Shown here: positions 1-64,000 of the stretch, in pieces
How positions within the stretch are numbered: the stretch's first letter is position 1
Layout of the letters: each line of letters opens with the position of its first letter
Source of the DNA: Alphaproteobacteria bacterium
GTDB taxonomy: Bacteria > Pseudomonadota > Alphaproteobacteria > UBA6615
DNA length: 64,000 bases
Reading direction: 5' to 3'
Assembly: GCA_038131445.1 (NCBI GenBank)
Contig: JAYPPL010000010.1
Span: 42,683 to 106,682 of the forward strand
Notes under the pieces: model-generated
What the model was told of the DNA's origin: nothing
Databases searched by the model: none
Seen by the model: only the letters and a program-made list of their open reading frames with translations
Translations under genes and position numbers: made by a program

Positions 1-897
1 ATCGTGGATCATCTGCCGGTTGGTAAAACGGTACGGCGCGCGGCCCGCGATGGCGTCGGCGAAGCCTTCCATGTTCGCGCGCACCGGGTTGATGTCGGCG
101 ACGGGGACAGTCTTGGGGTCCGTTCCGCGCATGCCGATCACGAACTGGTCGATGCCAGTCAGCCGCGCCCAGCCTTTCGAGCCGAGCACAGTGAGGATCC
201 GGTTCGGCGCGGTCACCATGACGTTCCCGATATAGGCGGTCGGCCCGCTCTCGAAGGTCAGCAGGGCCTGAGCGGAATCCCGCTCGATCACACGGTCGAC
301 GGCCTGCGCGTAGACTTCGCGTACCGGGCCGACGAAGTGCTGGAACAGGTCGAGGAAGTGGCTGCCCATGTGCCACAGGCCGCCGCCTGGCGCCTCCTCG
401 ACACTCTGGCGCCAGCCGGTCACGTCCGCCAGCGTGTCGTGGCTGAGATGGCCTTCCATGTGCATGATCTCGCCGAGTTCTCCGGATTCGATCATTTCCT
501 TAATCTGCGTCTGCGCCGCGCCATAACGCTGGTTATGGCCGAGGCCGAGCTGGATGCCCGCCGCTTCCGCCGCAGCGACGGCGCGTTCGGCCTCGGACTT
601 GCTCAGCGCGAAGGGCTTCTCGGTGAAGACGTGCTTGCCCGCGGCGGCGCCCGCCACGATCTGGTCGGTGTGCAGCGAATGGGGCGTGACTAGGATGACC
701 GCGTCGATCTCCGGGTCGGCGAGGACGTCATTAAAGGAGTCCGCGACCTTCAGTCCGGTTTCCGCGGCGGTCTTCTCCGCGAGGCTACGGTCCAGATCCA
801 CAACTGTGGTGATTGTGACCTTGTCGCTGTGCCCGAGGGTCGAGCGGATGTGCATCTGCCCCCACCAGCCCAGCCCGATAACTGCGGTTCTCAGCAT
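1..897 (-). CDS. Gfo/Idh/MocA family oxidoreductase (partial, C-terminus beyond left edge)
   Basis: Not in ORF track because it runs off the window. The reverse complement from ATG (cat at 895-897) reads open to position 1: MLRTAVIGLGWWGQMHIRS...AAGKHVFTEKPFALS. It has the N-terminal Rossmann GxGxxG-like motif and the EKP motif typical of the family. The 4..693 plus ORF is its antisense shadow. Confidence 0.8.
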   Translation of the reverse strand, partial: MLRTAVIGLGWWGQMHIRSTLGHSDKVTITTVVDLDRSLAEKTAAETGLKVADSFNDVLADPEIDAVILVTPHSLHTDQIVAGAAAGKHVFTEKPFALSKSEAERAVAAAEAAGIQLGLGHNQRYGAAQTQIKEMIESGELGEIMHMEGHLSHDTLADVTGWRQSVEEAPGGGLWHMGSHFLDLFQHFVGPVREVYAQAVDRVIERDSAQALLTFESGPTAYIGNVMVTAPNRILTVLGSKGWARLTGIDQFVIGMRGTDPKTVPVADINPVRANMEGFADAIAGRAPYRFTNRQMIHD

Positions 898-1048
898 CGT
901 TTCCCCCTAAATTCGCGGGTTTCACCTTTAGTGGCGTGTTTCCGCGTTTCCGGCGGACGGGTTGCTCATTCGGCGAGACAAGCGTTCTTGTGATCCGCCA
1001 CCGGTTCTCGTGCGTGATAATTAACATGAGAACTTACGGAGGCAGACC

Positions 1049-2089
1049 ATGAAATTCGGATTGTTCGGCAGCGCGCAAGCTAAACGTGGCGGTCCCGATG
1101 TAGACAGCGCCAAGGGTTACCGAGACTGGCTAGAATACAACACCGAAGCGGAGGCTTTGGGGTTCCACTCCACATTCGCTGTCGAACACCACTTCACGGG
1201 GTTCGGGCAGGTTTCCGCGACAATAAACCTGCTGACCTATCTGGCGGCGCAGACCTCCACCATCCGCCTCGGTACCGCTGTATTGGTTCTGCCCTGGCAT
1301 AATCCAGTGCTACTGGCCGAGCAAACCGCGACCCTCGACCTGCTGTCGGGTGGGCGCTTCGATTTCGGCGTCGGCAAGGGCTACCGCTTCAACGAGTTCA
1401 AGGGTTTCCGCATCCCCATGGAGGAAGCCGGGGGGCGCTTTGAGGAATCGCTCGAGATCATGACCAAGGCTTGGACCGAGGACAAACCCTGGACCTATGA
1501 GGGCAAGTACTGGTCCTTCGAGGACGTGATCGTCGAGCCACCGACGGCCCAGAAGCCGCATCCGCCCCTCTGGATGGGAGCGGGCAGCCCGCAATCCATC
1601 GCGGCGGTAGCCGAGCGGGGCTACAACCTCCTGCTAGACCAGTTCGCGCCAGTCGATGCGATCTACGCGCGCATCGGGACCTTCCGCGACGAGGTGGCTA
1701 ATTTCGGCCGGGCGTTCAATCCCTACGAGGTCGGCGTGGCGCGCGGGCTTTACGTGGCGAAGGATGCCGCCGACCGCGACCAGGCGCTGGAAAAGCGGAT
1801 CTCGGCGCGACGTCGGGTCGATAACCTGGCTCAGCGGCCGGACGGCGGTAACAAGTCCTCGTTAATGGCCTATGACGACACGTTGGAGGCGACATCCGCG
1901 GCGGCGATGTTCGGAACTGTCGATGAGATCGTGGAGAAGATCCAGCGGATGCATGATGCTGGCGTGCGCTATATGCTGTTCTCCGACGGTGGCTCGGGCA
2001 TCGAGGGACTGCGCACCTTCTCGAAGGAGATCATGCCCCACTTCGCAGACGCGGAGGATGACTCGGTGTTTTTACGCGCGGCGGAATAG
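1049..2089 (+). CDS. LLM-class (luciferase-like) flavin-dependent oxidoreductase
   Basis: 346 aa ORF with GGAGG-like RBS. MKFGLFG...FHSTFAVEHHF...LGTAVLVLPWHNPVLLAEQ...LSGGRFDFGVGKGY is typical of the bacterial luciferase-like monooxygenase family. Confidence 0.85.
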   Translation: MKFGLFGSAQAKRGGPDVDSAKGYRDWLEYNTEAEALGFHSTFAVEHHFTGFGQVSATINLLTYLAAQTSTIRLGTAVLVLPWHNPVLLAEQTATLDLLSGGRFDFGVGKGYRFNEFKGFRIPMEEAGGRFEESLEIMTKAWTEDKPWTYEGKYWSFEDVIVEPPTAQKPHPPLWMGAGSPQSIAAVAERGYNLLLDQFAPVDAIYARIGTFRDEVANFGRAFNPYEVGVARGLYVAKDAADRDQALEKRISARRRVDNLAQRPDGGNKSSLMAYDDTLEATSAAAMFGTVDEIVEKIQRMHDAGVRYMLFSDGGSGIEGLRTFSKEIMPHFADAEDDSVFLRAAE

Positions 2090-2168
2090 GGTTGTGGTGC
2101 GCGCGCTTGCGGCCGGCAGGCCGGCGCGATAAGCCTTTCGGCCGTCATTCGCCGGACAGGACGATCCC

Positions 2169-2953: not shown

Positions 2954-3826
2954 ATGGCTTCCGAAGACCCACGCGCCGTACTCGATTTCTTCACCGCGCG
3001 CGCGAGAGAGATTCGCACCCCCTGCGGTGACGGAGAGATGGTCTGGCGCGAGTGGGGAGCTGCGGCGCCCGGCACCGTGCCTCTAGTTCTGCTTCATGGC
3101 GGCTCGGGCGCGTGGAACCACTGGGTCCGCAACATACCCGTACTGGAGGACCGGTATCGCGTGGTCGCGGCCGACCTTCCGGGCTGCGGGGATTCCGCCG
3201 ACCCATCGGAGCCCTATGACGCGGACAGCCTCGCTGGCATCGTGTCGGACGGTCTCGATGCCGTCGTGCCAGGCGACGGGCAGTATGACCTTGTGTCGTT
3301 TTCCTTCGGCGGGGTGCTTTCCGGCCTCGTGGCTCGGCGCCAGGGCGCACGGTTGCGCAGCCTGACCATCGTCGGCACGCCAATCCTCGGTCTGATCACG
3401 ACGGGTAAGGCGAACGACCTTGTCGCGATCCCCGCGCATCTTCCACCGGAGGAAGCGGCCCCGCTGTACCGGGGGAACCTTGAAAAGCTCATGGTTCACG
3501 ACCCGGCGGCCATCGATGACCTAGCCATGTGCCTGCACTTGGAAAACATGGCGAAGGTCCGCCTGCGCTCGCGCGGGATCGCGCGCCGCCACCCGGTGGC
3601 TCCCGACCTTGTGGGGAGCGCCTGTGCGCTGAATTTCATCTTCGGGGAGTGCGACCCCACGCTGGCCCCGGACCTCGCCGGGGTCCGGGCGCATGTCGCG
3701 GAAACCCATCCCGATGCGAATTTCCATGTGGTGCCGGGGGCGGGTCACTGGGTACAGTACGAGGCCTCGGAGGCGTTCAACCGGCTCCTGCTGTCCTGGC
3801 TCGAGAGATTCTACGCTGTATCCTGA
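2954..3826 (+). CDS. alpha/beta hydrolase
   Basis: 290 aa. Contains the LVLLHGGSGAWNHW oxyanion region, a VSFSFGG nucleophile-elbow-like motif and a C-terminal GAGHWVQYE His motif. Confidence 0.8.
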   Translation: MASEDPRAVLDFFTARAREIRTPCGDGEMVWREWGAAAPGTVPLVLLHGGSGAWNHWVRNIPVLEDRYRVVAADLPGCGDSADPSEPYDADSLAGIVSDGLDAVVPGDGQYDLVSFSFGGVLSGLVARRQGARLRSLTIVGTPILGLITTGKANDLVAIPAHLPPEEAAPLYRGNLEKLMVHDPAAIDDLAMCLHLENMAKVRLRSRGIARRHPVAPDLVGSACALNFIFGECDPTLAPDLAGVRAHVAETHPDANFHVVPGAGHWVQYEASEAFNRLLLSWLERFYAVS

Positions 3827-3840
3827 CCGGAAGGGTTGAT

Positions 3841-4257
3841 TCAGGATGCATTGGGTTCAGGAAGCTTTGCTTCTTTCGGCTCGGTCGGATACTCGGCCTT
3901 TTTCCAGGCGCCGTAGCCGCCGCGCATATGCGCCACGGGTCCGAGGCCCATCTCATGCACGGCCAGTGCAGCCAGCGCGGAGCGCATGCCGCCTGCGCAA
4001 TAGAAGATGAACTTCTTCCCGGAGCCGAAGACGTCGCGATAGTAAGGGCTGTCGGGATCGACCCAGAATTCCAGCATGCCGCGCGGGGCATGGATCGCGC
4101 CGGGAATTGTGCCGTCGCGCCAGAGTTCGCGGATATCGCGGATATCGACCAGCTCCACATCGTCATTGCCGCGTACGGCCATGACCTCTTCCACGGTCAT
4201 GGTCTCGATGACCTGTTCCGCGTCTGCGCAAAGCTTCTTGATACCCTTGGTGATCAT
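3841..4257 (-). CDS. rhodanese-like sulfurtransferase domain protein
   Basis: Active-site loop FYCAGGMRS (CxxGxR). I prefer the ATG at 4257, preceded by GAGGAGAG, over the longer track start at 4320. Confidence 0.8.
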   Translation of the reverse strand: MITKGIKKLCADAEQVIETMTVEEVMAVRGNDDVELVDIRDIRELWRDGTIPGAIHAPRGMLEFWVDPDSPYYRDVFGSGKKFIFYCAGGMRSALAALAVHEMGLGPVAHMRGGYGAWKKAEYPTEPKEAKLPEPNAS

Positions 4258-4455: not shown

Positions 4456-6627
4456 ATGACCGAAATGATTAACGCGGGAAACATTCAGGTCGCCGCACCG
4501 CTCTACAACTTCATCAACAACGAGGCGCTTCCGGGCACCGGGATCGAGCCGGACCGTTTCTGGTCCGCGCTGGACGAGCTGGTGAACACGCTGGGCCCAC
4601 GTAACAGGGCGCTGCTCGCCAAGCGTGACGACCTGCAGGTGAAGCTGGACGCGTGGCATACGGAAAACCGTGACAAGGGGTTCGACCTCACGGCCTACAA
4701 GGCCTTCCTTGAGGAGATCGGATACCTCGTCCCCGAGGGCGGCGACGTACAAGTCGATACGGCCAATGTCGATTCTGAGATCGCGTCCATCGCTGGTCCG
4801 CAGCTCGTGGTGCCGATCACCAACGCGCGCTATGCGCTGAACGCCGCCAATGCGCGCTGGGGCAGCCTCTACGACGCGCTCTACGGCACTGATGTCATCC
4901 CGCAGCATGACGCGCCCGTCTCCGGCTACGACCCGGCGCGCGGCGCCAGGGTGATCGCCTATGCGCGCGATGTGCTGGATGAGGCTGCGCCGCTGGCCGA
5001 GGGCTCCCACGCCAATTCCACGGGCTACACTATTGAGGACGGTAAGCTGGTCGTCTCCGTCGATGGCCTCGCGCCGACCGGTCTGAAAGACCCGTCGCAC
5101 TTCGTCGGTTTCAAGGGCGATGCCGCATCGCCGTCGTCGATCCTGTTGGTCAACAACGGCATCCATGCCGAGATTGTGGTCAACCGCGATCACCCTATCG
5201 GCAAGGACGACCCCGCCGGCGTCGCGGATGTGGTGCTAGAATCGGCTCTGACCACGATCATGGACTTCGAGGACTCGGTCGCAACCGTCGATGCCGAGGA
5301 CAAGGTTGTCGCCTACCGCAACTGGCTCGGCCTGATGAAGGGCGACCTGACTGCTTCCTTCGACAAGGGAGGCAAGACTGTCGCGCGCTCGCTGGAGCCC
5401 GACCGCACCTTCACGGCGGCAGGCGGCGGGGAGATCACTCTGCACGGCCGTTCGCTGATGCTGGTGCGCAATGTCGGCCACTTGATGACTATCGGCATGG
5501 TCCTCGACCAGAACGGCGAGCCGGCCTTCGAGGGGATCATCGACGCGCTGGCCTCCGCGGCGATCGCGATCCACGATCTTAAGGGTAATGGAAAGTACCG
5601 CAACAGCCGCACCGGCTCGGTCTATATCGTGAAGCCGAAGATGCACGGGCCCGAGGAGGTCGCGTTCTCCGACGAGCTGTTCGGCTCGGTCGAGAAGGCG
5701 CTCGGCCTCGACACCAACACGATCAAGATCGGCATCATGGACGAGGAACGCCGCACCACGGTGAACCTCAAGGAATGCATCCGCGCTACCAAAAGCCGGG
5801 TGTTCTTCATCAACACCGGCTTCCTCGACCGCACCGGCGACGAGATGCACACCTCGATGGAAGCGGGCGCGATGATCCGTAAGGGTGACATGAAGGCCGC
5901 CCCGTGGATCCAAGCCTATGAGAACTGGAACGTGGATATCGGGCTGGAATGTGGCCTGCCGGGCCATGCCCAGATCGGCAAGGGCATGTGGGCCATGCCG
6001 GACCGCATGGCCGACATGATGGAGCAGAAGATTGGCCACCCGAATGCCGGTGCAAATACTGCCTGGGTGCCGTCGCCGACGGCAGCCACGCTGCATGCTC
6101 TGCACTATCACAAGGTCGATGTGGCCGCGCGCCAGGCCGATCTGAAATCACGCGGCCGGGCGAATATCGACGATATCCTATCGATCCCGGTGACCGAGCG
6201 TCCGAACTGGCCCGAAGCTGACATCCAGAACGAGCTCGACAATAACGCACAGGGTATCCTGGGTTACGTCGTGCGCTGGGTCGACCAGGGCGTCGGCTGC
6301 TCCAAGGTGCCGGACATCAACGATATTGGCCTGATGGAAGACCGCGCGACCCTGCGTATTTCCAGTCAGCACATGGCCAACTGGCTGCACCACGGCATCG
6401 TCACTGAGGATCAGGTGATGGAGACCATGCAGCGCATGGCCGGCGTGGTGGACAAGCAGAACGAGGGCGATGCGGCCTACCGTCCTATGGCGGGGCACTT
6501 CGACGACTCGGTCGCCTTTCAGGCGGCCTGCGATCTGGTCCTGAAGGGCCTCGAGCAGCCCAGCGGCTACACCGAGCCGATCCTGCATGCTCGACGGATC
6601 GAGGCGAAGGCCAAGTACGGGCAATAG
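4456..6627 (+). CDS. glcB: malate synthase G
   Basis: 723 aa. Length and sequence ([30 protein letters not shown]...) are characteristic of the G-type malate synthase. RBS GGAGG lies upstream. Confidence 0.95.
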
Positions 6628-6654
6628 TCCCGGCGTTGCTGTAAAGCGAATGGG

Positions 6655-6686
6655 AAAGGGCGGAACTCGGTCCGCCCTTTTTCTTT
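6655..6686. terminator. rho-independent terminator after glcB (possibly bidirectional)
   Basis: AAAGGGCGGA-actcgg-TCCGCCCTTT, a perfect 10-bp stem followed by TTCTTT. Located 28 nt after the glcB stop. Confidence 0.6.
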
Positions 6687-7104
6687 AGTCCAGCGTCTTC
6701 AGCCAGAACCGAATCGGCTTGTCGAGTTCCTTCTTCTCGCGCACCTCGAAGAAGCGGCGCTAGAGCCCGCGGCCCCAGTATTCGGGCAGCAGCACCGCCT
6801 CGCCGAAATAGAAGGTGCCCGGCGTGTCGAACTCGGCTTTAAGGGTAGGCGCACGCTGAGCCTTATACTCGTCATCGAGCGGCACCGCCGTGGTTACGCC
6901 TACCACCTAATCACCGTCGAGCACGACGAAGAGTGACGCACGCGGTGAGGCCGTACAGACATCGAGATAGTCTCGCTCGGACTCCATGTCTCCGTCATAA
7001 GGATAGAGCTAGTCTCGGAAAATCGTGCTTCGCAGTCACGCGAAGTCATCGCGCCGCCGGGCAATCTCCGCGCCGATCAGGTGTCCGAAGCGGAGTTCGC
7101 TCAT
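6685..7104 (-). pseudogene. GNAT family N-acetyltransferase reading frame with four in-frame stops
   Basis: A single 140-codon frame, MSELRFGHLIGAEIARRRDDFA*LRSTIFRD*LYPYDG...FVVLDGD*VVGVTTAVPLDDEY...FYFGEAVLLPEYWGRGL*RRFFEVREKKE. Stops are at 7036-7038 (TGA), 7009-7011, 6907-6909 and 6760-6762 (all TAG). There are no frameshifts. The start ATG overlaps the regulator stop (ATGA). Confidence 0.7.
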
Positions 7105-8579
7105 TGCCTCGCAGAGACATAGGCCGAGACTCCGCGGGTGTTCTCGTCGGTCTCCAGTGCATGCGCCACGGGCGGGAAGGCGCGCTGGGCGCAGTCCATG
7201 CGCGGGCAGGTCCGGCACGATACGCCGATAGGAACGATCCGCTCGGGCCGCTCGAGGTTGATGCTGTCCGCATAGACTAGTTCGCCCGCATGGCTCATCT
7301 CGCAGCCCAGCCCGACCGACAGGAAGCTGCGTGGCTCTCCGAAGCCACTGCTGTTCTTCAGCACCGTGCGCGCGATGCAGAAGAAGGTCTGGCCATCGGG
7401 CATCTGGGATATCTGGACTTTAATCGCGCCCGGCTGCAGGAAGGCCGAATAGACGTTCCAGCGCGGGCAAGTGCCGCCATGGCGCGGAATGTGGATGCCA
7501 GAGAGCGAGAACCGCTTGGAGATGTTGCCTGCGATATCGCTGCGCAACAGATGGAAGGGCACGCCGCGCCTTTGGGGGCGCTGCAGGGTCGTCAGGCGGT
7601 GGCACGCCTGTTCGAAGCTAACCCCAAAGCGGCGCTGTAGCAGTTCCACGTCATAGCGGTAGTACCTGGCCGCCTTGTGGAAGGCATCATAGGGCATCAG
7701 CAACGCACCGGCGAAGTAGTTCGCTAGCGCGATACGCGCTAGCCGGCGGGCGTCGTCGTCGGTGAAGTCACCTTCGTCGACCAGCAGGTTGATCTCGCGC
7801 TCGGCTGCCAGCAGGCCGATCTGGTGAGCTGCCTGGAAGTTGCGGCTGTCGGCGCGCAACATCTTCGACAGGTTTAGTACGCCCTTGTCGGGGTCGAACC
7901 GACGCACTGCCTGGTTGTCGTCCTCAGGCAGGTCGCTGACACGCACGTCGAAGGTGTTAGACAGGAAAGTTGCCATGGCGCGGAACGGGTCCTCGCCGGA
8001 CAGCGAGGAGTCATGGTTCACACGCTCGGCGGCCTCTTCCAGTTCCGCGAAGTGGTTGGCACGGGCCTGCAGGAAGTCTGATACCTGTTCACTCGAAAGG
8101 CGATCGCTCAGGATTGCCTCGTCGCCAGCACTCGCCGGACGGGCACTGGTGACGGCGGCGTCCTCGCGCATACTGCGGTAGCGGTCGTAGAGCGCCAGCA
8201 TAGCGCGCGCTAAGGTCGCGTTTGAGGTCACGAGATCCCGCACATCGGTGTTCGTCAGGTCGATATCCCCGAATAGGTCGTCCGCGAAGGCTTCCATCAG
8301 GTCGGCGCTGAGACGGCCTTCGTCGCTTTCGGCGATCTCGCTCAATTCCAGGTCGAACCGCTCGGCCAGCTTTTTGAGCAGGGGGACGGTCAGGTTCCGC
8401 CGGTTGTGCTCGATCAGGTTCAGGTAGCTGGCAGAAATTCCGAGCTCGCCTGCCAGTGCGGCCTGGCTCACGCCCTCCTGTCGGCGCAGGCGCCGGATGC
8501 GTCCGCCCAGCTTGGCCCCTCTCCTTTTGAGACCGTCGTTATTCGTTGAATTTGCGGCGATGGCGTCGAGGCTGGCCAT
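7101..8579 (-). CDS. XRE-family regulator with ImmA/IrrE-like domain (short-chain fatty acyl-CoA regulator ScfR/RamB type)
   Basis: 492 aa. N-terminal HTH (IRRLRRQEGVSQAALAGELGISASYLNLIEHNRR) plus a long C-terminal domain with a Cys-rich end. The position between glcB and an aceA remnant fits glyoxylate-shunt regulators of this family. Confidence 0.85.
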   Translation of the reverse strand: MASLDAIAANSTNNDGLKRRGAKLGGRIRRLRRQEGVSQAALAGELGISASYLNLIEHNRRNLTVPLLKKLAERFDLELSEIAESDEGRLSADLMEAFADDLFGDIDLTNTDVRDLVTSNATLARAMLALYDRYRSMREDAAVTSARPASAGDEAILSDRLSSEQVSDFLQARANHFAELEEAAERVNHDSSLSGEDPFRAMATFLSNTFDVRVSDLPEDDNQAVRRFDPDKGVLNLSKMLRADSRNFQAAHQIGLLAAEREINLLVDEGDFTDDDARRLARIALANYFAGALLMPYDAFHKAARYYRYDVELLQRRFGVSFEQACHRLTTLQRPQRRGVPFHLLRSDIAGNISKRFSLSGIHIPRHGGTCPRWNVYSAFLQPGAIKVQISQMPDGQTFFCIARTVLKNSSGFGEPRSFLSVGLGCEMSHAGELVYADSINLERPERIVPIGVSCRTCPRMDCAQRAFPPVAHALETDENTRGVSAYVSARQ

Positions 8580-8629
8580 GTCGAATCTCCGGTTTTACGC
8601 CTCATTCGCGTTTTCAGGTGCGGAGAAAA

Positions 8630-8649
8630 AATTTACAAAAATTTACAAA
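8630..8649. promoter_or_regulatory. tandem 10-bp direct repeat AATTTACAAA x2 in the divergent regulator/aceA promoter region (candidate operator)
   Basis: Perfect tandem copies at 8630-8639 and 8640-8649. The reverse complement AAAGTTTGTAAA resembles, from memory, the RamB box AAACTTTGCAAA. Confidence 0.3.
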
Positions 8650-8763
8650 CTTTCTCCAATAAACTCAGGAGCTTGTTTCATCACACGGTCAAGTTGTCAA
8701 TATTTTACATTACGGATGATCGGTGGGGTGGCGTGAAATAGAACTTTACCGATGGAGTGACCA

Positions 8764-9150
8764 ATGCCCCACGACATGTCTTCGATTATGCGCGGTGACG
8801 GAAACAACTCGGGCGACAACGAGACCTGGTAGGTCTCGGAATGGGCCCCGGACCGCTGGAAGAACATCCAGCCCGACAGCACCCGCGTCGATGTTGAGCG
8901 CTTGAGCGGTTCGCTGCCGACTAGCCACACGCTGGCCGAGAACTGCGCACGCAAGCTCTGGCAGCTCCTGCAGGATGAGGAGTACGTGCCGACGCTGGGT
9001 GCTTACACCGGTAACCAGGCGGTTCGGCACCTTCGCGCGGGCCTCACGGCAATCGACCTGTCGGGCTGACAGGTGTCGGCGGACGCTAACTCCTCGGGCC
9101 AGTCCTCGACCTCGGCAATGGCCGAATCCACCGAGGGAGCCCAGTTCTAA
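8764..9150 (+). pseudogene. aceA: isocitrate lyase remnant (N-terminal quarter fused to last ~15 codons, two in-frame stops)
   Basis: The frame reads ...ETW*VSEWAPDRWKNIQP...VERLSGSLPTSHTLAENCARKLWQLLQDEEYVPTLGAYTGNQAVRHLRAGLTAIDLSG*QVSADANSSGQSSTSAMAESTEGAQF*. It matches the ICL N-terminus, including the LSGWQVAADAN motif with W replaced by TGA (9067-9069). TAG is at 8830-8832. The end resembles the ICL C-terminus (..TGSTEESQF in E. coli). About 300 internal codons are missing. Confidence 0.75.
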
Positions 9151-46419: not shown

Positions 46420-46510
46420 GAGAAAATTTCATAACACTTAAAAAAAATTTTTCAAAGAAAAATTTCACTAAATAATTTCCAATTGGTGCTAAACGAAAAG
46501 AGAAATTTGA
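46404..46510. repeat. cluster of GAAA(A)ATTTC/A motifs in extremely AT-rich DNA upstream of, and into, the 97-aa gene
   Basis: Copies at 46406-46415, 46422-46430, 46457-46466 and 46502-46510, with a degenerate AATAATTTCC at 46471-46480. Each is a short GAAAT/ATTTC inverted repeat. Confidence 0.3.
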
Positions 46511-48742: not shown

Positions 48743-48745
48743 GTC

Positions 48746-51766: not shown

Positions 51767-52578
51767 TTAGCCCCAAATGATCATAACGGACAGGATAAGG
51801 GCCAGATAGCCGATAAACATCCGGTGGATCAGCACGTCCGGGATGCGGTGGGAAATCTTTACGCCGCCCGGTGAGCCAAAGATCGCGCCAACGGCGAGGC
51901 CCGCGAAGGCCGGGCCGTACAGATACCCGAAGGCAAAGTCCGGCAGGCCCGTCTCGTCAAAGCCGCCATAGATGTAGCCGCCCGCCGAGGCGAGGCCGAC
52001 CATCGCGGCCAGCGCCGAACAGCTCGCGGCCACCATGGGCATGGAATAGCGGTGACGCGAAGATACGGGCCGATCACCATCGCAGGCCCGGGGCCTAGGA
52101 GCGAACCCGTGATCCCCGTCAGCGTGCCGTGGAACCACAGGCCCGGTCCGCGCACGTTGTGGAGGTCGCCGCCGGCAGCCACCGTCTCGTGGCCCTTGTA
52201 GAAAATGCCCCGCAGGATTGCGACGCCGATGAAGCCCATGAAGATGATCTTCAGGACATCGCCGGGAAGGTAGTCACCGAAGATCGAGCCGGCGACGGCG
52301 CCGATCACGATGAACGGCACGAAGCGCAGGGTGACGGGCAGTTGCAGGTCGCCGGTCCGGTAGCGCAGGGCCGCGACATAGGCCGAGGTCGCGGCCATCA
52401 CGCCCAATGCCGTTCCTGCTGAGAGATGCATCACATGCTCGTCGGGCACACCCTGCAGGGGCAGGCCGATGATCAGGGCCGGGGCCATGGTGAAGGCACC
52501 GCCGACGCCGAACAGGCCGGAGACGAACCCGGCCAGCGCGCCGGTCAGGAAATAGATCAGGATGATTTCGTAGAGCAT
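51767..52578 (-). pseudogene. sulfite exporter TauE/SafE family protein, 1-nt frameshift
   Basis: The N-terminal 170 codons are in the frame of ORF 51859..52578 (MLYEIILIYFLTGALAGFVSGLFGVGG...GPGPAMVIGPYLR). The C-terminal part is in the frame of ORF 51767..52138 (RHRYSMPMVAASCSALAAMVGLASAGGYIYGGF...). The frame switches at about 52055-52062. The intact paralog next door aligns across the junction. Confidence 0.7.
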
Positions 52579-52587
52579 CGCGGGCCC

Positions 52588-53409
52588 TCAGCCTGTCCGG
52601 CCGTGCAGCAGCATCACCACCAGCACAATCGCGAGATAGAGCAGGTACAGGCGGCTTTGCAGGTGGTCGTCGAGGATACGCGAAATCTTCAGGCCCAGCG
52701 GCGCACCGGCCAGCCCGCCCACGGCGAGACCGGCGAAGGCCGGCAGGAAGAGGTAGCCAAGGCTGTTCTCCGGCAGCCCGGTCTCGTTGAAGCCGCCGAC
52801 GATATAGGTGACGCCCGCGAACAGGCCCATGGAGGCGGCGAGCGTCGAGGCGGTGGCGATGGTCGTCGCCATGGGGAAGCGCAGACGGCGCAGGAAGGGC
52901 ACGACCAGCACGGCGGGGCCCGGCCCCATCAGTGAGCCGAGGAAGCCGGACAGTGATCCCGAGAGCCAGAATTCCGGGCCGCGTACCCCGGACAGGTCGC
53001 TGCCACTCTGCAGGTCCACAATCCGCCTGGTCAGCAGCCCGCGCACGATGGTCAGCGCGATGAAGAAGATGAAGATCGCCTTCAGGACGTTGCCCGGCAG
53101 CGCGTCGCCGACCGTCGCCCCGACGATCGCGCCCACGGCGACCAGCGGCAGGAATTTCGCGACAAGGGCAAGATTGGTGTCGCCCGCGCGCCAGCGCAGC
53201 ACGGCGGTGAAGCTGGCCGTCACGAAGATGACGGCCTGGGTGGTGCCGATGGTCAAATGCATGCGCTGTTCGCCGCCGATGTCCTGGATGGTCAGCGCGA
53301 TCAGCAGGATGGGCGCCACGGCGAACCCGCCGCCGACGCCGAACATCGCGGCGACGACCCCGGCGAACACGCCCATGGCCAGGTAGATCAGGATGATTTC
53401 AACGGGCAC
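52588..53409 (-). CDS. sulfite exporter TauE/SafE family protein
   Basis: GTG 53409 is preceded by GGAGGAAG. VPVEIILIYLAMGVFAGVVAAMFGVGGGF... The track start at 53724 looks like an over-extension. Confidence 0.8.
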   Translation of the reverse strand: MPVEIILIYLAMGVFAGVVAAMFGVGGGFAVAPILLIALTIQDIGGEQRMHLTIGTTQAVIFVTASFTAVLRWRAGDTNLALVAKFLPLVAVGAIVGATVGDALPGNVLKAIFIFFIALTIVRGLLTRRIVDLQSGSDLSGVRGPEFWLSGSLSGFLGSLMGPGPAVLVVPFLRRLRFPMATTIATASTLAASMGLFAGVTYIVGGFNETGLPENSLGYLFLPAFAGLAVGGLAGAPLGLKISRILDDHLQSRLYLLYLAIVLVVMLLHGRTG

Positions 53410-53597
53410 GCAACTTCCTCCGCTGCGAGCATTAACGATGCGCGGAAGGGAAGGCAATTCGGCCGCCGCAGGGGTGATATGTGCACGATGATGGAGCGGC
53501 CATCCCCCGACGAAGCAAGCACTTGTGACCGTGTGACAGTTGCTTTTGCGGGAGGGCGCGCTAATTAGTCCGGACAAGCTTTGCAGGAAGGTGCCAC

Positions 53598-54974
53598 ATG
53601 GCGGAATACGACTACGACCTGTTTGTGATCGGCGCGGGCTCCGGCGGGGTCCGGGCGTCCCGGTTTTCCGCGGGCTATGGCGCACGTGTGGCGGTTGCCG
53701 AAGACCTGCACATGGGCGGCACATGCGTGAATGTGGGCTGCATTCCGAAAAAGCTCTTCGTCTATGCCTCGCACTTCCATGAGGAGTTCTCCGACGCGGC
53801 GGCCTATGGCTGGACGGTCAAGCCGGAGTCCTACAACTGGCGCACCCTCGTCGAGAACAAGGACAAGGAAATCTCCCGCCTCAACGGCATCTACCGCCGC
53901 CTGCTGGAGAATTCCGGGGTGGAGGTCATCGACGGCCGCGCGACGGTCGTGGATGCGCACACCGTCGGGGTCGAGGGCAAGCACTACACCGCGGAGAACA
54001 TCCTCGTCGCGGCTGGAAGCTGGCCGAACGATCACCGCTTCGAGGGCCACGAGCACATGATTACCTCGAATGAGGCGTTCTATCTCGATGAGCTGCCCAA
54101 GCGTGTTGTGGTCGAAGGCGGCGGGTATATCGCGGTGGAGTTCGCGGGTATCTTCGCGGGCCTTGGTGTCGAGACGACGCTTGTCTATCGCGGCGCGATG
54201 TTTATGCGCGGCTTCGACGAGGACATCCGTCACCACCTCAAGGCCGAGATGGAGAAGAAGGGCATCACCATGCGCTTCAACTCCGTGTTCGACCGGATCG
54301 AGAAGACCGATGACGGCCTGCGCGTCCACCTGACCGACGGGGTGATCCTGGAAGCCGATCAGGTGCTGTCGGCCATCGGCCGCCGCCCGAAGGTGACGGG
54401 CCTGGGCCTGGAAGAGGCAGGCGTGGAACTGAAGGAGAACGGCGCCGTGGTCGTGGACGAGTATTTCCGCACCTCGGTCCCGTCGATCTGGGCCATCGGC
54501 GACATCATCGACCGCTACCAGCTCACGCCGGTCGCGCTGGCCGAGGGTATGGCCGTCGCCAAGACGCTGTTCCGCAACGAGCCGACGACGGTGAACTACG
54601 ACTACATCCCGACCGCCGTGTTCAGCCAGCCGCCGGTCGGCACGGTCGGACTGACGGAAGCCGAGGCGCGCGAGAAGTATGGCGATGTGTCGATCTTCAA
54701 GAGCAGCTTCAAGCCGCTCAAGCACACGCTGACCGGGCGCGACGAGCAGACCTTCATGAAGATGATCGTCGATAAGGCGTCCGACAAGGTTGTGGGCATC
54801 CACATGGTCGGCGCCGATGCGGGCGAGATGATGCAGGGCTTCGGCGTGGCGCTGAAGGCGGGCGCGACGAAGGCGATCTTCGACAGCACCATCGGCATTC
54901 ATCCGACCTCGGCGGAAGAGTTCGTCACCATGCGCGAGCCGGTGCCGGAAGAGACCGCCAAGGCCGCGGAGTAG
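53598..54974 (+). CDS. gor: glutathione-disulfide reductase
   Basis: 458 aa. [11 protein letters not shown], the redox-active [13 protein letters not shown] motif, and a C-terminal HPTSAEE motif. Confidence 0.9.
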
Positions 54975-55121
54975 CCGGGCGGTTTTCTAGGGCCTTGTAT
55001 TTGTGCGATTTTCGCTGGAAATCGCGCCCTGGGACGCCTATAGCCTCCCCCGTTAGCGCGTATGTGACCTGGTCAAGCGAACAAATGGACGGGTTTTGCG
55101 GTTCACCGCGGCCCGAATGAT

Positions 55122-56516
55122 GTGATGTCGAAGAACTGGAAGCCCGATAGCTGGCGCGCCCGCGATATTCTGCAGGTGCCGGAATACAGCAATGCCGGCG
55201 CCCTTGCGGCCGTCGAAGCCGAACTCTCGAAGCAGCCACCGCTGGTGTTCGCCGGCGAGGCGCGTGCGCTGCGTGCGCAGCTCGCCCGCGTGGCCGAGGG
55301 TCAGGCATTTTTGCTGCAGGGCGGCGACTGCGCGGAAAGCTTCGCCGAATTCCATGCCGACAACATCCGCGACACCTTCAAGGTGCTCCTGCAGATGGCG
55401 GTGGTGCTGACCTATGGCGCCGCCTGCCCGGTGGTGAAGGTCGGCCGCATGGCCGGGCAGTTCGCCAAGCCCCGCTCGGCCCCGATGGAAGAGATCGACG
55501 GTGTGTCCCTGCCGAGCTATCGCGGCGACATCATCAACGATATGGCGTTCGAGCCGGCTTCGCGCGAGCCCGATCCCGCGCGCATGCTGCGTGCCTATCA
55601 CCAGGCCGCCTCGACGCTGAACCTGCTGCGCGCCTTCGCCCAGGGCGGCTTCGCGGACCTGACCCGGATTCACCAGTGGAATCTGGACTTCGTGAAGTCA
55701 AGCGCCCAGGGCGCGAAATTCGAGGAACTGGCGACCCGCATCGACGAGACGCTGGCCTTCATGGCCGCCTGCGGCCTGACCAGCGAGAACGTCCCGCAGA
55801 TGCGCGAGACGGATTTCTACACCAGCCATGAGGCGCTGCTGCTGGTCTATGAGCAGGCGCTGACGCGGCAGGATTCGCTGACCGGCAAGTGGTACGACAC
55901 CTCGGCCCACATGCTGTGGATCGGTGACCGCACCCGGCAGCCCGACGGCGCGCATGTGGAGTTCCTGAGCGGGGTCGAGAACCCCATCGGCATCAAGTGC
56001 GGCCCGTCGCTCGACACCGACGACCTGCTGCGCCTGCTCGACACCCTGAACCCGGAGAACGAGGCGGGCCGGATCACCCTGATCTGCCGCATGGGCGCGG
56101 ACAAGGCCGCCGACGGCCTGCCGCCGCTGGTGCGCGCGGTCGAGGGCGCCGGGCGCAAGGTTGTCTGGTCGTGCGACCCGATGCACGGCAACACGATCAA
56201 GGCCTCCACCGGCTACAAGACGCGCGGCTTCGACGCGATCCTGTCGGAGGTGGACACCTTCTTCGCGGTGCACCGTGCTGAAGGCTCGCACGCCGGCGGC
56301 GTCCATTTCGAGATGACCGGCCAGGACGTCACCGAATGCATCGGCGGCGCCCAGGAGATCACCGAGGAACGCCTCGCGGACCGCTATCACACCCATTGCG
56401 ACCCGCGCCTGAACGCCAGCCAGTCCATCGAACTGGCCTTCCAGATCGCCGAGCGGCTGAAAAGCCAGCGTGACGTGATGGCGGCGGAGCTGGCGCAGGC
56501 CGCGTCGGCCGACTGA
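55122..56516 (+). CDS. class II (plant-like) 3-deoxy-7-phosphoheptulonate synthase
   Basis: 464 aa. [12 protein letters not shown]...[11 protein letters not shown] is typical of AroA(II). The start is GTG 55122 or ATG 55125. Confidence 0.9.
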
Positions 56517-56598
56517 CGGCAGCGCGCGGGCCTCGAAAGAGGCTTTGCGAACGGCCCGTCGCGCGCCAGACTGCGACGCGCAATGATCGGGGGTCCTG

Positions 56599-57792
56599 AT
56601 GAGCACGACCGAATCGCCTGAACCGGGCACGACGCGCGAGGCCGCGCCGGCGGAGCCCGCACGCGCCACGGAACTGCGCCCATCGGTGGCGGATATCTCC
56701 CGCTACACCGACACCTATTTCAACAAGACCCGCGATATCGTCGGCAAGTTCGGCGACACCCAGGTCACCTATGCGGTGTTCATGCGCCGCCCGGTGATCT
56801 CGGCCGCCCGCCTCGCGCTGGAATGGCTGGATGGCGTGGCGGCGGCGCGCGGCACCGAATTCAAGGTGGATCTGCGCTTCGACGAAGGACGCTGGGTCGG
56901 CGCGGGTGAGCCGCTGATGTACATCTCCGGCTCGTTCCACGAGCTGGTCGATCTGGAAACGCTGTTCCTGCAGAAGCTCGGCGCGGGCTGTGTGGCGGCC
57001 TACAACGCGGCAGCCATGTGCGTGGACCTGCCGAACGTGGCCTTCATGGCCTTCGATGCGCGCCACTGCACGGGCCCGGACATGGCCGAGCTGATGGCCT
57101 ATGCCGCCTCGGTCGGCTCGGCGCGCGCCAAACGCAAGGTCGGTGCGATCGGGTTTGTCGGCAACGCGACGGATGCGACGGCGCATTATTTCGGCCAGGA
57201 TCGCGGGCTGGGCACCATGCCGCACGCGCTGATCGGCTACGCCGGCACCACGCTGCGTGCGGCCGAGATGTTCCACGAGACCCATCCCGACGAGCCGCTG
57301 ACCGTGCTGGTCGATTATTTCGGGCGCGAGGTGAGCGACTCCCTGGAAGTCTGCCGCCGTTTTCCCGAGATGGTGCGCGAGGGCCAGCTGGCGCTGCGCC
57401 TCGACACGCCGGGCGGCCGCTATATCGAGGGGCTGGACCCGTCCCAGAGCTATGCCGTGCTGGAGCGCCATTCGCCCGATGCCATTCGCGGCTACCGGAC
57501 CGAGGGCGAGCTCCGCCACCTGATTGGCGGCGGCGTGTCCGCTGCGGCGCTCTGGCGCCTGCGCGAGAAGCTCGACCAGGGCGGATTCGAGAAGGCGAAG
57601 ATCGTGGCGTCCTCGGGCTTCGGGCCGGAGAAGTGCAAGGTCATGGCCGCTGCCGACGCGCCCATCGACGCCATCGGCACGGGCTCCTTCCTGCCGGGCG
57701 ACTGGCAGCAGACCTATGCGACGGCGGATATCGTGGAGTACGGCGGCACCAAGCGCGTGAAGGTCGGCCGCGAGTTCCTGCTGCGGAAGTAA
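56599..57792 (+). CDS. nicotinate phosphoribosyltransferase family protein
   Basis: 397 aa. YTDTYFNKTRDIV N-terminus, a GTMPHALIG motif, and the position immediately upstream of nadE. Confidence 0.8.
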   Translation: MSTTESPEPGTTREAAPAEPARATELRPSVADISRYTDTYFNKTRDIVGKFGDTQVTYAVFMRRPVISAARLALEWLDGVAAARGTEFKVDLRFDEGRWVGAGEPLMYISGSFHELVDLETLFLQKLGAGCVAAYNAAAMCVDLPNVAFMAFDARHCTGPDMAELMAYAASVGSARAKRKVGAIGFVGNATDATAHYFGQDRGLGTMPHALIGYAGTTLRAAEMFHETHPDEPLTVLVDYFGREVSDSLEVCRRFPEMVREGQLALRLDTPGGRYIEGLDPSQSYAVLERHSPDAIRGYRTEGELRHLIGGGVSAAALWRLREKLDQGGFEKAKIVASSGFGPEKCKVMAAADAPIDAIGTGSFLPGDWQQTYATADIVEYGGTKRVKVGREFLLRK

Positions 57793-57876
57793 CGCCCGGC
57801 GGCGCGTTGACACCCCGGACGTCCGCCAATACCGTCCGACGCCTGAGTTTTAGCCCCTTTCCGCACGACCAGTGCC

Positions 57877-59564
57877 ATGACCGATTCCCTGAACATCACG
57901 CTCGCCCAGCTCAACCCCGTCGTGGGGATATCGAGGGCAATGTCGCGAAGATCCGCGCGGCCCGGCTGGCGGCATCCGGGCAGGGGGCGGACCTCGTCGT
58001 CTGCACGGAGCTTTGCGTCACCGGCTACCCGCCGGAAGACCTGATCCTGAAGAACGCCTTCGTGCGCGCGGCGATGGCCGCCGTCGAGGAACTGGCGAAG
58101 GAAACCGGTGACGGCGGGCCGGGGCTGATTATCGGCACGCCATGGCTGGACGGGGACGGCAACCGGTTCAACGCCGCCGCCGTGCTCGACGATGGCAAGG
58201 TGCAGACGCTGCGCTACAAGTGGGACCTGCCGAACTACGGCGTGTTCGACGAGAAGCGCGTCTTCCAGCCGGGCGATCTGCCGGGGCCGGTGAACTTCCG
58301 GGGCGTGCGGCTCGGCCTCGCGGTCTGCGAGGACATGTGGACGCCGGATGTGTCCGAAACCCTGATGGAATCGGGGGCCGAGATCCTCGTCTTCCTGAAC
58401 GGCAGCCCGTATGAGCGCGACAAGGTCGATACCCGCATGAACCTGGCCGTCGCGCGGGTGACGGAGACGGACCTGCCGCTGATCTATGTGAACCAGGTGG
58501 GGGGGCAGGACGAGCTGGTCTTCGACGGCGGCTCCTTCGTGCTGAACGCCGACCGGCGCATGGCCGTGGCGGCGACCCAGTTCACCGAAGACCTCAAGGC
58601 CACGACCTGGGCGCGCGGCGATGACGGCTGGGCCTGCACATCCGGCGAGATCGAGCCCTGGATCGAGGGCATGGAGCGCATCTACCAGGCGATGGTGCTG
58701 GGCCTGCGCGACTATGTGAACAAGAACGGCTTCCCCGGTGTCGTCATCGGGCTTTCAGGCGGCATCGATTCCGCGATCACGGCGGTGGTCGCCGTGGATG
58801 CGCTGGGCCGCGACCGGGTGCACTGCGTGATGATGCCGTCTCCCTACACAAGCGGGGATTCGCTGGACGATGCCCGCGAACTCGCCGAGCGGCTGGAGGT
58901 GCGCTACGACAGCGCCAATATCGGCCCGGCCATGGGCGCGTTCGACACGATGCTGACCGAGGTCTTCAACGAGCCCGCCTCGGGCGTGACGGCGGAAAAC
59001 ATCCAGAGCCGGTCGCGCGGCACGCTGCTGATGGCGATTTCCAATGCCACCGGCGCGATGCTGGTCACCACCGGCAACAAGTCGGAAATGTCGGTGGGCT
59101 ACGCCACCATCTATGGCGACATGAACGGCGGCTATTCGGTCATCAAGGACGTGTACAAGACCGATGTGTTCGCGCTGTGCCGCTGGCGGAACGAGAACTT
59201 CCCCGACAACGTGCTGGGCCCGGCGGGCGACGTGATTCCCGATCGGATCATCACCAAGCCGCCGTCGGCCGAGCTGCGCCCCGACCAGAAGGACGAGGAC
59301 TCCCTGCCGCCCTATGAGGTGCTGGACGCGATCCTGCACGGGCTGATCGAGGAAGACCTGGGCGCTGAAGACCTGGAAGCGAAGGGATTTGAGCCGGAGA
59401 CCGTCCAGCGCATCTGGCGGCTGCTGGAACTGTCGGAATACAAGCGCCGCCAGGCCCCGCCGGGGGTGAAGCTGACCAGCCGCGCCTTCGGCCGCGACCG
59501 CCGCTACCCGATCACCAACGCGTTCCGGGGGCAAGGCATAGCTGCTCGGCTGCCAAACCATTGA
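57877..59564 (+). pseudogene. nadE: glutamine-dependent NAD+ synthetase with a -1 frameshift at codon ~17
   Basis: ATG 57877 gives MTDSLNITLAQLNPVVG and then runs out of frame, stopping after ~55 codons. The rest (DIEGNVAKIRAARLAA...CN-hydrolase domain...GLSGGIDSA PP-loop...) is in the frame of the long ORF ending at 59564. The frames join at the GGGG run at 57924-57927, where one more G would restore VVGDIEGN. Confidence 0.8.
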
Positions 59565-59721
59565 ATTGCCTTGGCTTCCCCGTGGCGCTATACACGCGGC
59601 CATGACTGACCGGCTTTCCCGTCGATGTTGCATTGCCTGCGGGCGAATTACCGCCTGACAGCCCCTGTCTGTGCGCGGGTAACCCGCGCGCGAAGTGCAC
59701 TCTTTATTCCGGGACCCCGTG

Positions 59722-61098
59722 ATGACTCTTCATCTCCACAACACATTGACGCGCAGCAAGCAGGCCTTCGAGCCGATCGATCCGGCCAATGTGCGCATGT
59801 ATGTCTGCGGCCCGACCGTCTATGACGATATTCATATCGGCAACGCGCGCCCGCTGGTGGTGTTCGACGTGCTGGCCCGGCTGCTGCGCCAGGAATACGG
59901 CGCGGGGCACGTCACCTATGCCCGCAACATCACCGATGTGGACGACAAGATCATCGACCGGGCGGCGGAGAACGGTGAGACCATCGACACGCTGACACGG
60001 CGCACGACCGAGAATTTCCACGCGGCCACGGCGGCGCTGGGTTGCCTGCCGCCGGATGTGGAGCCGCGCGCGACCGAGCACATCGCCCAGATGATTGCGC
60101 TGATCGAGACCCTGGTCGCCAAAGAACACGCCTATGCGGCCGAAGGCCATGTGCTGTTCCATGTACTCTCGATGCCGGACTACGGGAAGCTGTCGGGCCG
60201 CAACCGCGACGAGATGATCGCGGGCGCGCGGGTCGAGGTCGCACCCTTTAAGCGCGATCCGTCGGACTTCGTGCTGTGGAAGCCCTCGACCGGCGACCAG
60301 CCGGGCTGGGAGTCGCCCTGGGGTTTCGGGCGCCCGGGCTGGCACCTGGAATGCTCGGCCATGAGCGAGCAGCACCTCGGCGCGTCCTTCGACATCCATG
60401 GCGGCGGCGTGGATCTGGTTTTCCCGCACCATGAGAACGAAATCGCCCAGTCCCGCTGCGCCCATCCGGGCGCGTCCTTCGCCAACTACTGGGTGCACAA
60501 CGGCTACCTGATGAGCGAGGGGGAGAAGATGTCCAAGTCGCTGGGCAACTTCTACACTGTCTCCGACCTGCTCAAGGAGTTCCCGGGCGAGGCTCTGCGC
60601 CTGGCCATCCTGAAGACCCATTACCGCCAGCCGCTGGACTTCACCAAGGACGGCGTGCGCGAGGCACGGCAGGAACTGAACCGGTGGTTCCGGGCGCTGG
60701 CACTGGTGAAGGACGGGGCGTCATCGGACGGGGAAATCCCGGACGGCGTGATCGCGGCGCTCGAGGACGATTTGAACACACCGGCCGCGATTGCCGCCGT
60801 GCATGCCGCGGCGGATGCCGTGTTCGCCGCGGACAAGGACGGTGACGCGGAGGCGGCCGAGACCGCCGCCGACCGTCTGAAGGCGGCGGGGCGTCTGCTC
60901 GGTATTCTGCAGGAAAGTCCGGACGTGTGGTTCCAGGGTGGTGGTGACGCGACCATCGATGCGCTGGTGGCCGAGCGCAACGCGGCGCGCGCGGAGAAGA
61001 ACTTCGCCCGGGCCGACGAAATCCGTGACGAGCTGCTGGCACAGGGCATCGTGCTGGAAGACGGCGCGGGCGGCACCACCTGGCGGCGGGAAGGCTGA
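59722..61098 (+). CDS. cysS: cysteine--tRNA ligase
   Basis: [18 protein letters not shown]..., HIGN and KMSKS class I signatures. Confidence 0.95.
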
Positions 61099-62712: not shown

Positions 62713-62944
62713 TTGAGTCCCAGACATCTTCTATCGGCGGGGTCACGGCCCGGCCTGCGCGCGGTGGCGATCCTGTCCGCCAGCGGCCTGACCCTGTTCG
62801 GGATGGCGGGCGTGTCGCCGGCGCTTCCCGCCATTGCGCGCTTTTGACATCGGGCTGGGACTGATGGCGGCGTTCTTAGCGCTCTGGTTATCGACCGGCT
62901 CGGTGCTGACGGCGCTTGCGGTTTTCCGGAGCGGCCTGGTATGA
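62713..62944 (+). pseudogene. MFS transporter remnant (first TM plus a terminal TM, frame-broken)
   Basis: LSPRHLLSAGSRPGLRAVAILSASGLTLFGMAGVSPALPAIARF*, then in another frame FDIGLGLMAAFLALWLSTGSVLTALAVFRSGLV*. This is far too short for a transporter. Confidence 0.35.
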
Positions 62945-63092
62945 TTTCTGGCGGGTTGCAATTCGTGCCGATCATGAGCGTATCCTGACGGGAGAAACGA
63001 ACTGATGGCGGAACCGACCGACCATGACCGTGGCGATGATGGCGGTGACGGCTTTCTGGCCGAGAGCGACTCCATGACCGGCGGCCCGCTGG

Positions 63093-63869
63093 GTGAATCC
63101 TCCCAACCGCGTGGAGCCCCAGCTCGGTGAGAATATTGGTGCTGTCGCGCGCGCCATGCTGAATTGCGGCCTCGATCGCATGACGCTGGTGAACCCGCGC
63201 GAGGAATGGCCGAACCAGCGTGCCGTGACCATGGCGTCGGGTGCGACGCAGGTGCTCGACAATGCAGTACTGTGCGACAGCGTGGAAGACGCCGTGGCCG
63301 GCCTGACCACGGTCTATGCGACCACGGCGCGCCCGCGCGAGATGTCGGTCCGGGTGGTGACGCCGCGACAGGCGGGCACGGAAATCCGCGAGGCCGAGGC
63401 CCGCTGCGAGACGGTCGGCATCCTGTTCGGGCCGGAGCGCTCGGGCCTGGTCAACGAACATGTCGTGCTGGCGGATACCGTGATCACCGTGCCGCTCAAT
63501 CCAGCTTATTCCTCCCTGAACCTGGCCCAGGCCGTGCTGCTGGTGGCCCATGAGTGGTTCACGGCGGGTGATGAAACCCCGCCTGACCAGATGTCCACGC
63601 CCGGGACGAGGTCAGCGGAAAAGCACGAGCTGATCGCCCTGTTCGAACGGCTCGAGGCCGCATTGGAGGAGGGGGGCTATTTCCGTTCGCCGGACCTGAG
63701 GGACACGGCGACCCGGAACATCCGCGCGATGCTGCAGCGCGCGCGCCTGACCGAGCAGGAAGTGCGGTCTTTCCACGGGATGATCAGCGCGCTCACCCGG
63801 AGCTGGCAGTACACCCAGAATGCCAGGCGCCGCCGCGGGGAGTGGCCGGAGGACGAGACCGCCGACTAG
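63093..63869 (+). CDS. SpoU/TrmH-class RNA 2'-O-methyltransferase (TrmJ/LasT-like)
   Basis: EPQLGENIGAVARAMLNCGL...LVNPR...FGPERSGL...LNLAQAV motifs. GTG start. The usual hydrophobic first beta-strand before EPQ is replaced by PPNRV. Confidence 0.75.
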   Translation: MNPPNRVEPQLGENIGAVARAMLNCGLDRMTLVNPREEWPNQRAVTMASGATQVLDNAVLCDSVEDAVAGLTTVYATTARPREMSVRVVTPRQAGTEIREAEARCETVGILFGPERSGLVNEHVVLADTVITVPLNPAYSSLNLAQAVLLVAHEWFTAGDETPPDQMSTPGTRSAEKHELIALFERLEAALEEGGYFRSPDLRDTATRNIRAMLQRARLTEQEVRSFHGMISALTRSWQYTQNARRRRGEWPEDETAD

Positions 63870-64000
63870 GCCGCGCGCGATCCGCGCAGGCCGAACGTGA
63901 AGTGGACGGCCAGTGTCGCCAGAATTACAAACCCGCCGATCAGGGTCCGGTCGGAGGGGATCTGCGCGATGAACAGCCACGCCCAGAATGGTCCGATCAC
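63866..64000 (-). CDS. DMT (EamA-like) transporter, C-terminal fragment (gene continues beyond right edge)
   Basis: Not in track. The reverse complement of 64000..63866 reads VIGPFWAWLFIAQIPSDRTLIGGFVILATLAVHFTFGLRGSRAA*. It is a hydrophobic EamA-type C-terminus, and its stop overlaps the trmJ-like stop (CTAG). Confidence 0.5.
   Translation of the reverse strand: MIGPFWAWLFIAQIPSDRTLIGGFVILATLAVHFTFGLRGSRAA

Follow-up and report, generated by a model that had tools for sequence, protein, structure and literature searches.

Does a dense run of disrupted genes record the erosion of a genome, or flaws in its assembly? The question is raised by a 64,000-nucleotide stretch of alphaproteobacterial DNA (the window; C10:42683-106682 of the source assembly, G000), in which an earlier note had listed twelve disrupted loci, normally essential genes among them. 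Comparison with intact orthologues from two collinear genomes of its genus, G010 and G007, and from five near-conspecific metagenome contigs shows that all twelve are disrupted. The density of lesions is unusual against G010 and G007, neither of which has a lesion in the genes of the region that they share with the window (34 for G010 and 38 for G007). Two unrelated processes probably account for them: assembly consensus errors, which would have produced the single-base insertions and deletions (indels), and real gene loss in the lineage, which would have left the gene relics. The first group (class A) consists of single-base insertions and deletions scattered assembly-wide, with one in roughly every 21 kb of conserved coding sequence, and has potB, tauE, nadE (two indels), a small secreted protein gene, and probably a Rap1a-like gene as its members in the window. 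In the second (class B), deletions of 0.2 to ~9 kb have removed genes kept by relatives, leaving receiver, MFS, and radical SAM stubs, and dispensable genes (GNAT and aceA) have gained nonsense mutations and internal deletions under relaxed selection; the debris of an island in the window also belongs here. The loss of the 3' end of glmS is treated separately.

G000 comprises 2.56 Mb in 10 contigs at 62% GC (60-63% across all contigs), with a completeness of 88.8%, a contamination of 2.3%, and a full-length 16S ribosomal RNA gene inside a 118-kb contig. GlmS of the window groups with uncultured marine Alphaproteobacteria and Rhodospirillaceae metagenome-assembled genomes, and G000 is itself a metagenome-assembled genome of high contiguity from a marine alphaproteobacterium, probably built from long reads; such a completeness in only 10 contigs, together with the position of the 16S gene within its contig, fits an unpolished long-read assembly. 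Genome sizes within the genus range from 2.4 to 3.9 Mb, with G000 at the small end.

For comparison, G010 (85-91% nucleotide identity, collinear with window positions 1-44450), G007 (a complete 3.9-Mb genome, collinear with the entire window), and the five near-conspecific contigs (short-read, from different samples, 91-97.5% identical over window positions 47209-60899) were used as references. The genome-wide test compared 880 kb of G007 with its G000 orthologues in both directions, using a strict frame-break filter (identity of 75% or more, with the two halves adjacent and each 30 residues or longer) that misses breaks close to gene ends. A second count of lesions was restricted to codon-model start sites and locally conserved flanks. 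The comparison of nonsynonymous to synonymous divergence (dN/dS) covered the window genes with the C-terminal half of potB and pncB left out.

Single-base frame breaks in the window and across the genome

The PotB-like ABC permease gene (38968-39859, minus strand; Pfam BPD_transp_1) is split by a one-base insertion (C) at ~39332; residues 1-176 and 176-297 of the G010 orthologue fall in different frames, and the extra C was confirmed by nucleotide alignment. The TauE/SafE exporter gene (tauE, 51770-52578, minus strand; Pfam TauE) is one base short at 52059 (C vs CC), and is intact at 271 residues in G007 and in the five near-conspecific contigs. Two indels were found in the glutamine-dependent NAD synthetase gene (nadE, 57877-59564, plus strand): the G run at 57925-57928 is one base short (G4 vs G5), and an extra G at 59527 (G5 vs G4 in the five near-conspecific contigs), absent from the earlier list, replaces the last ~12 codons and makes the open reading frame (ORF) ~8 codons longer. 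An intact NadE protein of 554 residues, 99% identical, exists, and nadE is intact in all five near-conspecific contigs; at the nadE site, L144 and L145 are not alike. The frame of the small secreted protein gene (51218-51612, plus strand) is broken in a poly-A run, A6 in the window and A7 in the intact copy carried by the close relative L008. The claim that the nadE indel alone sits in a homopolymer is thus not quite accurate, given both this A run and the second G run of nadE. The break in the Rap1a-like gene (45278-45662, plus strand), whose mature part matches Pfam PF18602 (E = 2.9e-13) and whose signal peptide lies in another frame, probably belongs to the same class. Values of dN/dS for tauE (0.09-0.16) and nadE (0.10) are like those of the intact neighbours glmU (0.11) and potA (0.12), so that, the breaks apart, purifying selection on these genes is normal.

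Breaks of the same kind occur throughout G000. The strict filter returned 18 frame-shifting events in 17 of 333 G000 orthologues, one per 20.8 kb of conserved coding sequence; applied to G007, it returned 7 events, at least 5 of which are mirror images of G000 breaks, leaving roughly 2 non-mirror events in 350 genes. In the second count, lesions were present in 31 of 278 G000 genes vs 9 of 437 G007 genes (at least 4 of the latter being mirror images), and by the same method the G007 frameshift rate is about one-tenth that of G000. The excess is specific to G000, the five near-conspecific contigs being intact at tauE and nadE and G007 showing so few breaks of its own. Single-base frame breaks were found in G000 in the genes for RadA, GatA, ArgJ, HisS, ClpB (two breaks), CarB, and CarA, and in two more genes that were recognised by reading the sequences as those for GuaA and GlnS. 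No second copy of hisS, gatA, glnS, carA, carB, guaA, clpB, radA, or argJ was found in G000, and in the 9 other genomes of the genus with a full-length hisS the gene is unbroken. Identity to the orthologue does not differ between the two sides of a break, and the break positions are distributed evenly over the lengths of the genes. At the genome-wide rate ~2.6 frame breaks would be expected in the window, where ~5-6 were observed; since events close to the ends of genes escape the genome-wide filter, the window does not clearly stand out within G000.

As inferred here, class A most likely consists mostly of consensus errors and not of mutations in a living cell. Consensus error is favoured because no cell would be viable with hisS, both gatA and glnS, carAB, guaA, and nadE all broken, that is, without histidyl-tRNA synthetase, both Gln-tRNA routes, carbamoyl-phosphate synthase, GMP synthase, and NAD synthetase. 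The nadE lesion in particular is most likely an artefact. That sequencing error might explain the indels had been suggested from the window itself, and the suggestion is supported by their genome-wide occurrence, their presence in indispensable single-copy genes, and the normal dN/dS of the genes they break.

Spurious pseudogenes from assembly or consensus error, a problem of long-read or low-coverage assemblies in particular, are documented: long-read metagenome-assembled genomes are reported to carry indel-made pseudogenes that lower completeness estimates (Cusco et al. 2021, PMC8103633), and many of the pseudogenes in databases have their origin in assembly (Cooley & Wright 2024, PMC11017572). 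G000 resembles such cases in having single-base indels genome-wide, conserved and essential genes broken, completeness lowered despite contiguity, and relatives that are intact; it differs in that several of its indels do not lie in homopolymers. The practical value of the result is a quality warning for the G000 assembly, where about 1 in 20 conserved genes is split by a single-base indel. Split genes distort metabolic reconstruction, in which NAD, pyrimidine, purine, and histidyl-tRNA functions would appear absent, and they also affect the completeness estimate and any lifestyle inference based on pseudogenes.

Gene relics and deletion scars

Lesions of another kind mark the relics of the window. 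The GNAT acetyltransferase pseudogene (6685-7104, minus strand) carries four in-frame stops, TGA at 7038 and TAG at 7011, 6909, and 6762, at positions where G010 has R, W, K, and Y, respectively, and its 3' end has lost ~180 bp, the intact G010 orthologue encoding 198 residues. The Pfam GNAT match has an E value of 0.0019 in the window copy and 1.3e-5 in the G010 copy, and dN of the relic is 0.134 vs 0.02-0.05 in the adjoining genes. The isocitrate lyase (ICL) gene relic (aceA, 8764-9150, plus strand; Pfam ICL, E = 4.7e-4; dN/dS 0.30) has two stops, TAG at 8830 (Q/P in relatives) and TGA at 9067 (W in relatives), and an internal deletion of 927-928 bp at ~9090-9102 relative to both G010 and G007. 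A true ICL is intact in 8 of the 11 genus genomes, and none was found elsewhere in G000. ICL is also absent from two other genomes of the genus, G001 and G006. Over window positions 4456-9150, malate synthase G and the adjoining regulator are intact beside the ICL relic (95% and 91% amino-acid identity to G010).

In the radical SAM gene relic (28777-29226, plus strand; Pfam Radical_SAM, E = 1.8e-4; dN/dS 0.22), a TGA at 28870 falls on a conserved Cys position, and truncation has left the N-terminal ~150-176 of 373 residues; the deletion that ends the relic at ~29226 measures 8.7 kb vs G010 and 4.9 kb vs G007. A possible second stub at this scar (29208-29425, minus strand) would correspond to the first ~80 residues of a 502-residue G010 ORF, spread over two frames and matched by two blastx segments with 66% and 69% identity; its overlap with a conserved gene on the plus strand leaves the stub uncertain.

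The receiver-domain and MFS transporter stubs gave no Pfam match, and both assignments rest on synteny, with G010 and G007, respectively. At the former (42315-42626, plus strand), ~28 residues match the N-terminus of a 155-residue receiver protein of G010, in which the receiver gene and the gene for a 648-residue KatG take up 3.1 kb, vs 0.6 kb at this point of the window; katG is present in 3 of the 11 genus genomes. A katG match at G010:C3:56595-58730 contains one in-frame TAG in a 737-residue open frame, which may be an upstream stop or a lesion of G010. At the latter (62713-62944, plus strand), the first ~45 codons are left and end in an in-frame stop, with 0.4 kb in the window vs 2.5 kb in G007, where the gene encodes 406 residues.

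Every gene that bears stops (GNAT, aceA, and radical SAM) also carries a deletion. These relics have dN of 0.106-0.134 vs 0.017-0.051 in their neighbours and dN/dS of 0.17-0.30 vs 0.04-0.08; for class B relics dN is 2-8 times that of adjoining genes, and both G010 and G007 keep the orthologues intact. The three stop-bearing loci are true pseudogenes under relaxed selection, because stops are combined with deletions, dN is raised, and relatives keep intact orthologues. The same observations uphold the view that sequencing error cannot explain the loci with nonsense codons and deletions. A changed genetic code or stop recoding was considered and rejected, in agreement with the earlier note, since the relatives have as many as six amino acids (R, W, K, Y, Q, and C) where the window has in-frame stops: TGA takes the place of R, W, or C, and TAG that of W, K, Y, or Q/P.

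Over the collinear 44 kb, G010 has ~19 kb more DNA than the window, and at no point less, from which it follows that the G000 lineage has been losing DNA. At window positions 3826-3841, a 15-bp intergenic point where both G010 and G007 have ~1-1.4 kb extra, a clean deletion in the G000 lineage is seen with no stub. Between the NAPRTase gene and nadE (57799-57803), 4 bp are left with no remnant, where near-conspecific contigs have ~590 bp with a gene for a 177-residue GNAT protein on the minus strand (L145:15191-15724).

Genome-wide, after removal of artefacts, roughly 8-12 of 278 assessed loci in G000 are true relics, truncated or multi-lesion, vs ~1 in G007. The real part of the signal is thus modest: the lyase of the glyoxylate shunt has been shed and malate synthase kept, and a radical SAM system, a segment with the receiver gene and katG, and transporters have also been lost in the G000 lineage. 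The relics are still visible, which helps to date gene loss in a genus of 2.4-3.9 Mb genomes.

The glmS tail and the variable slots

The glmS gene (48746-50530, plus strand) is present as codons 1-595; its conserved final 12 codons are missing along with the stop codon, and the frame continues through 50 foreign codons to 50683. The encoded GlmS lacks the C-terminal 12 residues (QPRNLAKSVTVE), a tail that is present in 7 of 7 relatives examined and in 4 near-conspecific contigs. Homology to every relative ends exactly at 50531, 36 nucleotides ahead of the stop codon; glmS is intact at 607 residues in near-conspecific contigs, and its dN/dS is 0.09. A second copy of glmS, for which the earlier note proposed a check, was not found elsewhere in the assembly, and neither was a displaced glmS tail.

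The tail and the glmS-tauE spacer are replaced by a low-GC insert of 1.24 kb (50531-51770, no strand assigned), which is single-copy in the genome, is flanked by glmS and the exact end of tauE, and holds the broken secreted-protein gene and a stretch of debris (50531-50940). The debris, previously described as that of a hydrolase, is indeed disrupted, but gave no Pfam match even at E = 5, and the hydrolase label is not supported. In the five near-conspecific contigs the same slot holds a gene for a thiamine-pyrophosphate enzyme and an aldehyde dehydrogenase gene (L145:5700-9026); in L008 it holds a 5.6-kb island (L008:11786-17379) with the intact copy of the window's secreted protein; and in L003 and L021 it measures only 48-125 bp. 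Because its cargo differs in every close relative, the slot behaves as an integration (island) hot spot. The insert of the window looks like a decayed island, with a deletion reaching 36 nucleotides into glmS.

The glmS lesion is probably real, a structural variant of the sequenced genotype, because the correct neighbours lie on both sides and the slot carries different cargo in every relative. The C-terminal tail of GlmS contributes to the isomerase active site, so the truncated product should be inactive. If the truncation is real, dependence on external amino sugars would be implied. A gene for NagA (N-acetylglucosamine-6-phosphate deacetylase) lies at C10:219194-220171 of G000 and scores above the curated cut-off; amino-sugar salvage through NagA could in principle compensate for glmS.

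A second low-GC island (44334-47157, no strand assigned, ~50% GC) ends at tRNA-Val and contains the Rap1a-like gene and an intact SNase-Excalibur nuclease gene (44545-45198, minus strand; Pfam SNase and Excalibur). In near-conspecific contigs the tRNA-Val slot holds genes for RidA and a DUF3108 protein upstream of glmU (L145:803-2397; L146:10-978), and L146 carries a phage-type integrase there.

Competing explanations

If all lesions were real, G000 would represent early and rapid genome erosion in a host-restricted or strongly bottlenecked lineage, with recent frameshifts even in core genes. This is unlikely, although it is consistent with the greater number of relics and stubs in G000 than in G007, with the deletion-biased change seen in the ~19 kb surplus of G010, with the place of G000 at the small end of the genus, with the several indels that lie outside homopolymers, and with the presence of NagA, which could bypass glmS. 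It is opposed by the state of single-copy hisS, gatA and glnS, carA, carB, guaA, and nadE, all of which would be dead, a combination incompatible even with endosymbiont life; by the lack of decay downstream of the breaks, with normal dN/dS; by a GC content of 62% with no AT drift; and by the intact near-conspecific populations. In the pseudogene-rich genomes of bacteria that became host-restricted only recently (Sodalis glossinidius and Mycobacterium leprae, for instance), core translation and nucleotide synthesis are intact, pseudogenes amount to tens of percent, and AT drift is frequent. G000 shares with them the co-occurrence of nonsense mutations, frameshifts, and internal deletions, as well as a deletion bias against larger relatives, but its core genes are hit, its true relics are a few percent of loci, and its GC content is 62%. 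Two expectations of host-restricted erosion fail, since true pseudogenes are 8-12 of 278 loci and not tens of percent, and breaks fall in hisS, gatA, glnS, carAB, and guaA where decay should be accessory and core genes intact. The relaxed selection earlier proposed for the window is therefore retained for the relics, and the host-type erosion is not, as it leans on the indels and the relics are only a few percent. Very unlikely is the related reading that the single-base frame breaks are real and mark a marine alphaproteobacterial lineage in which collapse or dependency is only setting in, perhaps through a new obligate association, with hisS, gatA, carAB, guaA, nadE, and glmS all inactivated in quick succession and their functions supplied by a partner or rescued by slippage.

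A strain-consensus artefact, in which the indels and the glmS junction would stem from collapsed divergent haplotypes and no single cell would carry them, is also improbable. Mixtures are plausible in so far as the glmS-tauE and tRNA-Val slots vary between very close populations, and strains differ within some of the short runs that contain indels, as L144 and L145 do at nadE; however, the 1.24-kb insert is unique and has the correct neighbours on both sides, unlike the usual collapsed bubble, and one-base indels within highly conserved genes are not readily produced in this way. That nothing is unusual, the window being a chance cluster on a normal pseudogene background, is likewise unlikely for the lesions as a whole: relatives are without lesions in the same 34-38 genes, the frameshift rate of G007 is far lower by the same method, and the excess is genome-wide and not a local cluster. 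For the relics alone, an ordinary background is a better description, as the real relics make up no more than a few percent of loci and gene content in the genus is variable, as the distributions of katG and ICL show. The ordinary bacterial background is ~1-5% of genes, with gene flux at island hot spots by glmS and tRNA genes. G000 agrees with it in that class B relics lie at deletion scars or islands and the glmS-downstream and tRNA-Val slots vary in every relative, and departs from it in that the deletion at the glmS slot runs 36 nucleotides into the gene and removes a conserved C-terminal tail, which islands normally avoid. Of the proposal that an ordinary genome-wide pseudogene fraction might make the window a chance cluster, the ordinary fraction of relics thus stands; the chance cluster does not, since the window is typical of G000.

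The two-process explanation, consensus errors for the single-base indels and real loss for the relics, therefore remains the favoured one, and several observations weigh against it. Indels outside homopolymers (that of potB and several genome-wide) are less typical of nanopore error; class A is also a mix of insertions and deletions. G000 also has more true relics than G007, so there is some real excess of decay; the nearest contigs are 3-9% divergent, which is compatible with strain-specific real mutations; and were the glmS truncation real, one or more normally essential genes would truly be broken. As to the relics, we infer from their frequency of a few percent of loci an ordinary pseudogene background in a lineage at the small end of its genus, and not runaway erosion; ordinary gene loss or mild reduction is favoured over host-type erosion because the GC content of 62% is unchanged, relics are few, and gene content varies within the genus.

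Some measures were set aside. The first automated pseudogene calls were discarded because antisense shadow ORFs had raised the counts, as had ORFs with long extensions at the N-terminal end, a typical feature at 62% GC; murC, ddl, ftsA, and ftsI of the dcw cluster, for example, had been wrongly called multi-stop pseudogenes. Crude coding density (86% in G000 vs 90% in G007) was dropped as a measure of erosion, since it is confounded by low-density stretches that are low-GC islands missed by the codon model. Two regions of G000, C10:200000-210000 and C10:500000-530000, have 44-47% GC vs 62% for the genome and almost no codon-model genes, and are presumably foreign islands.

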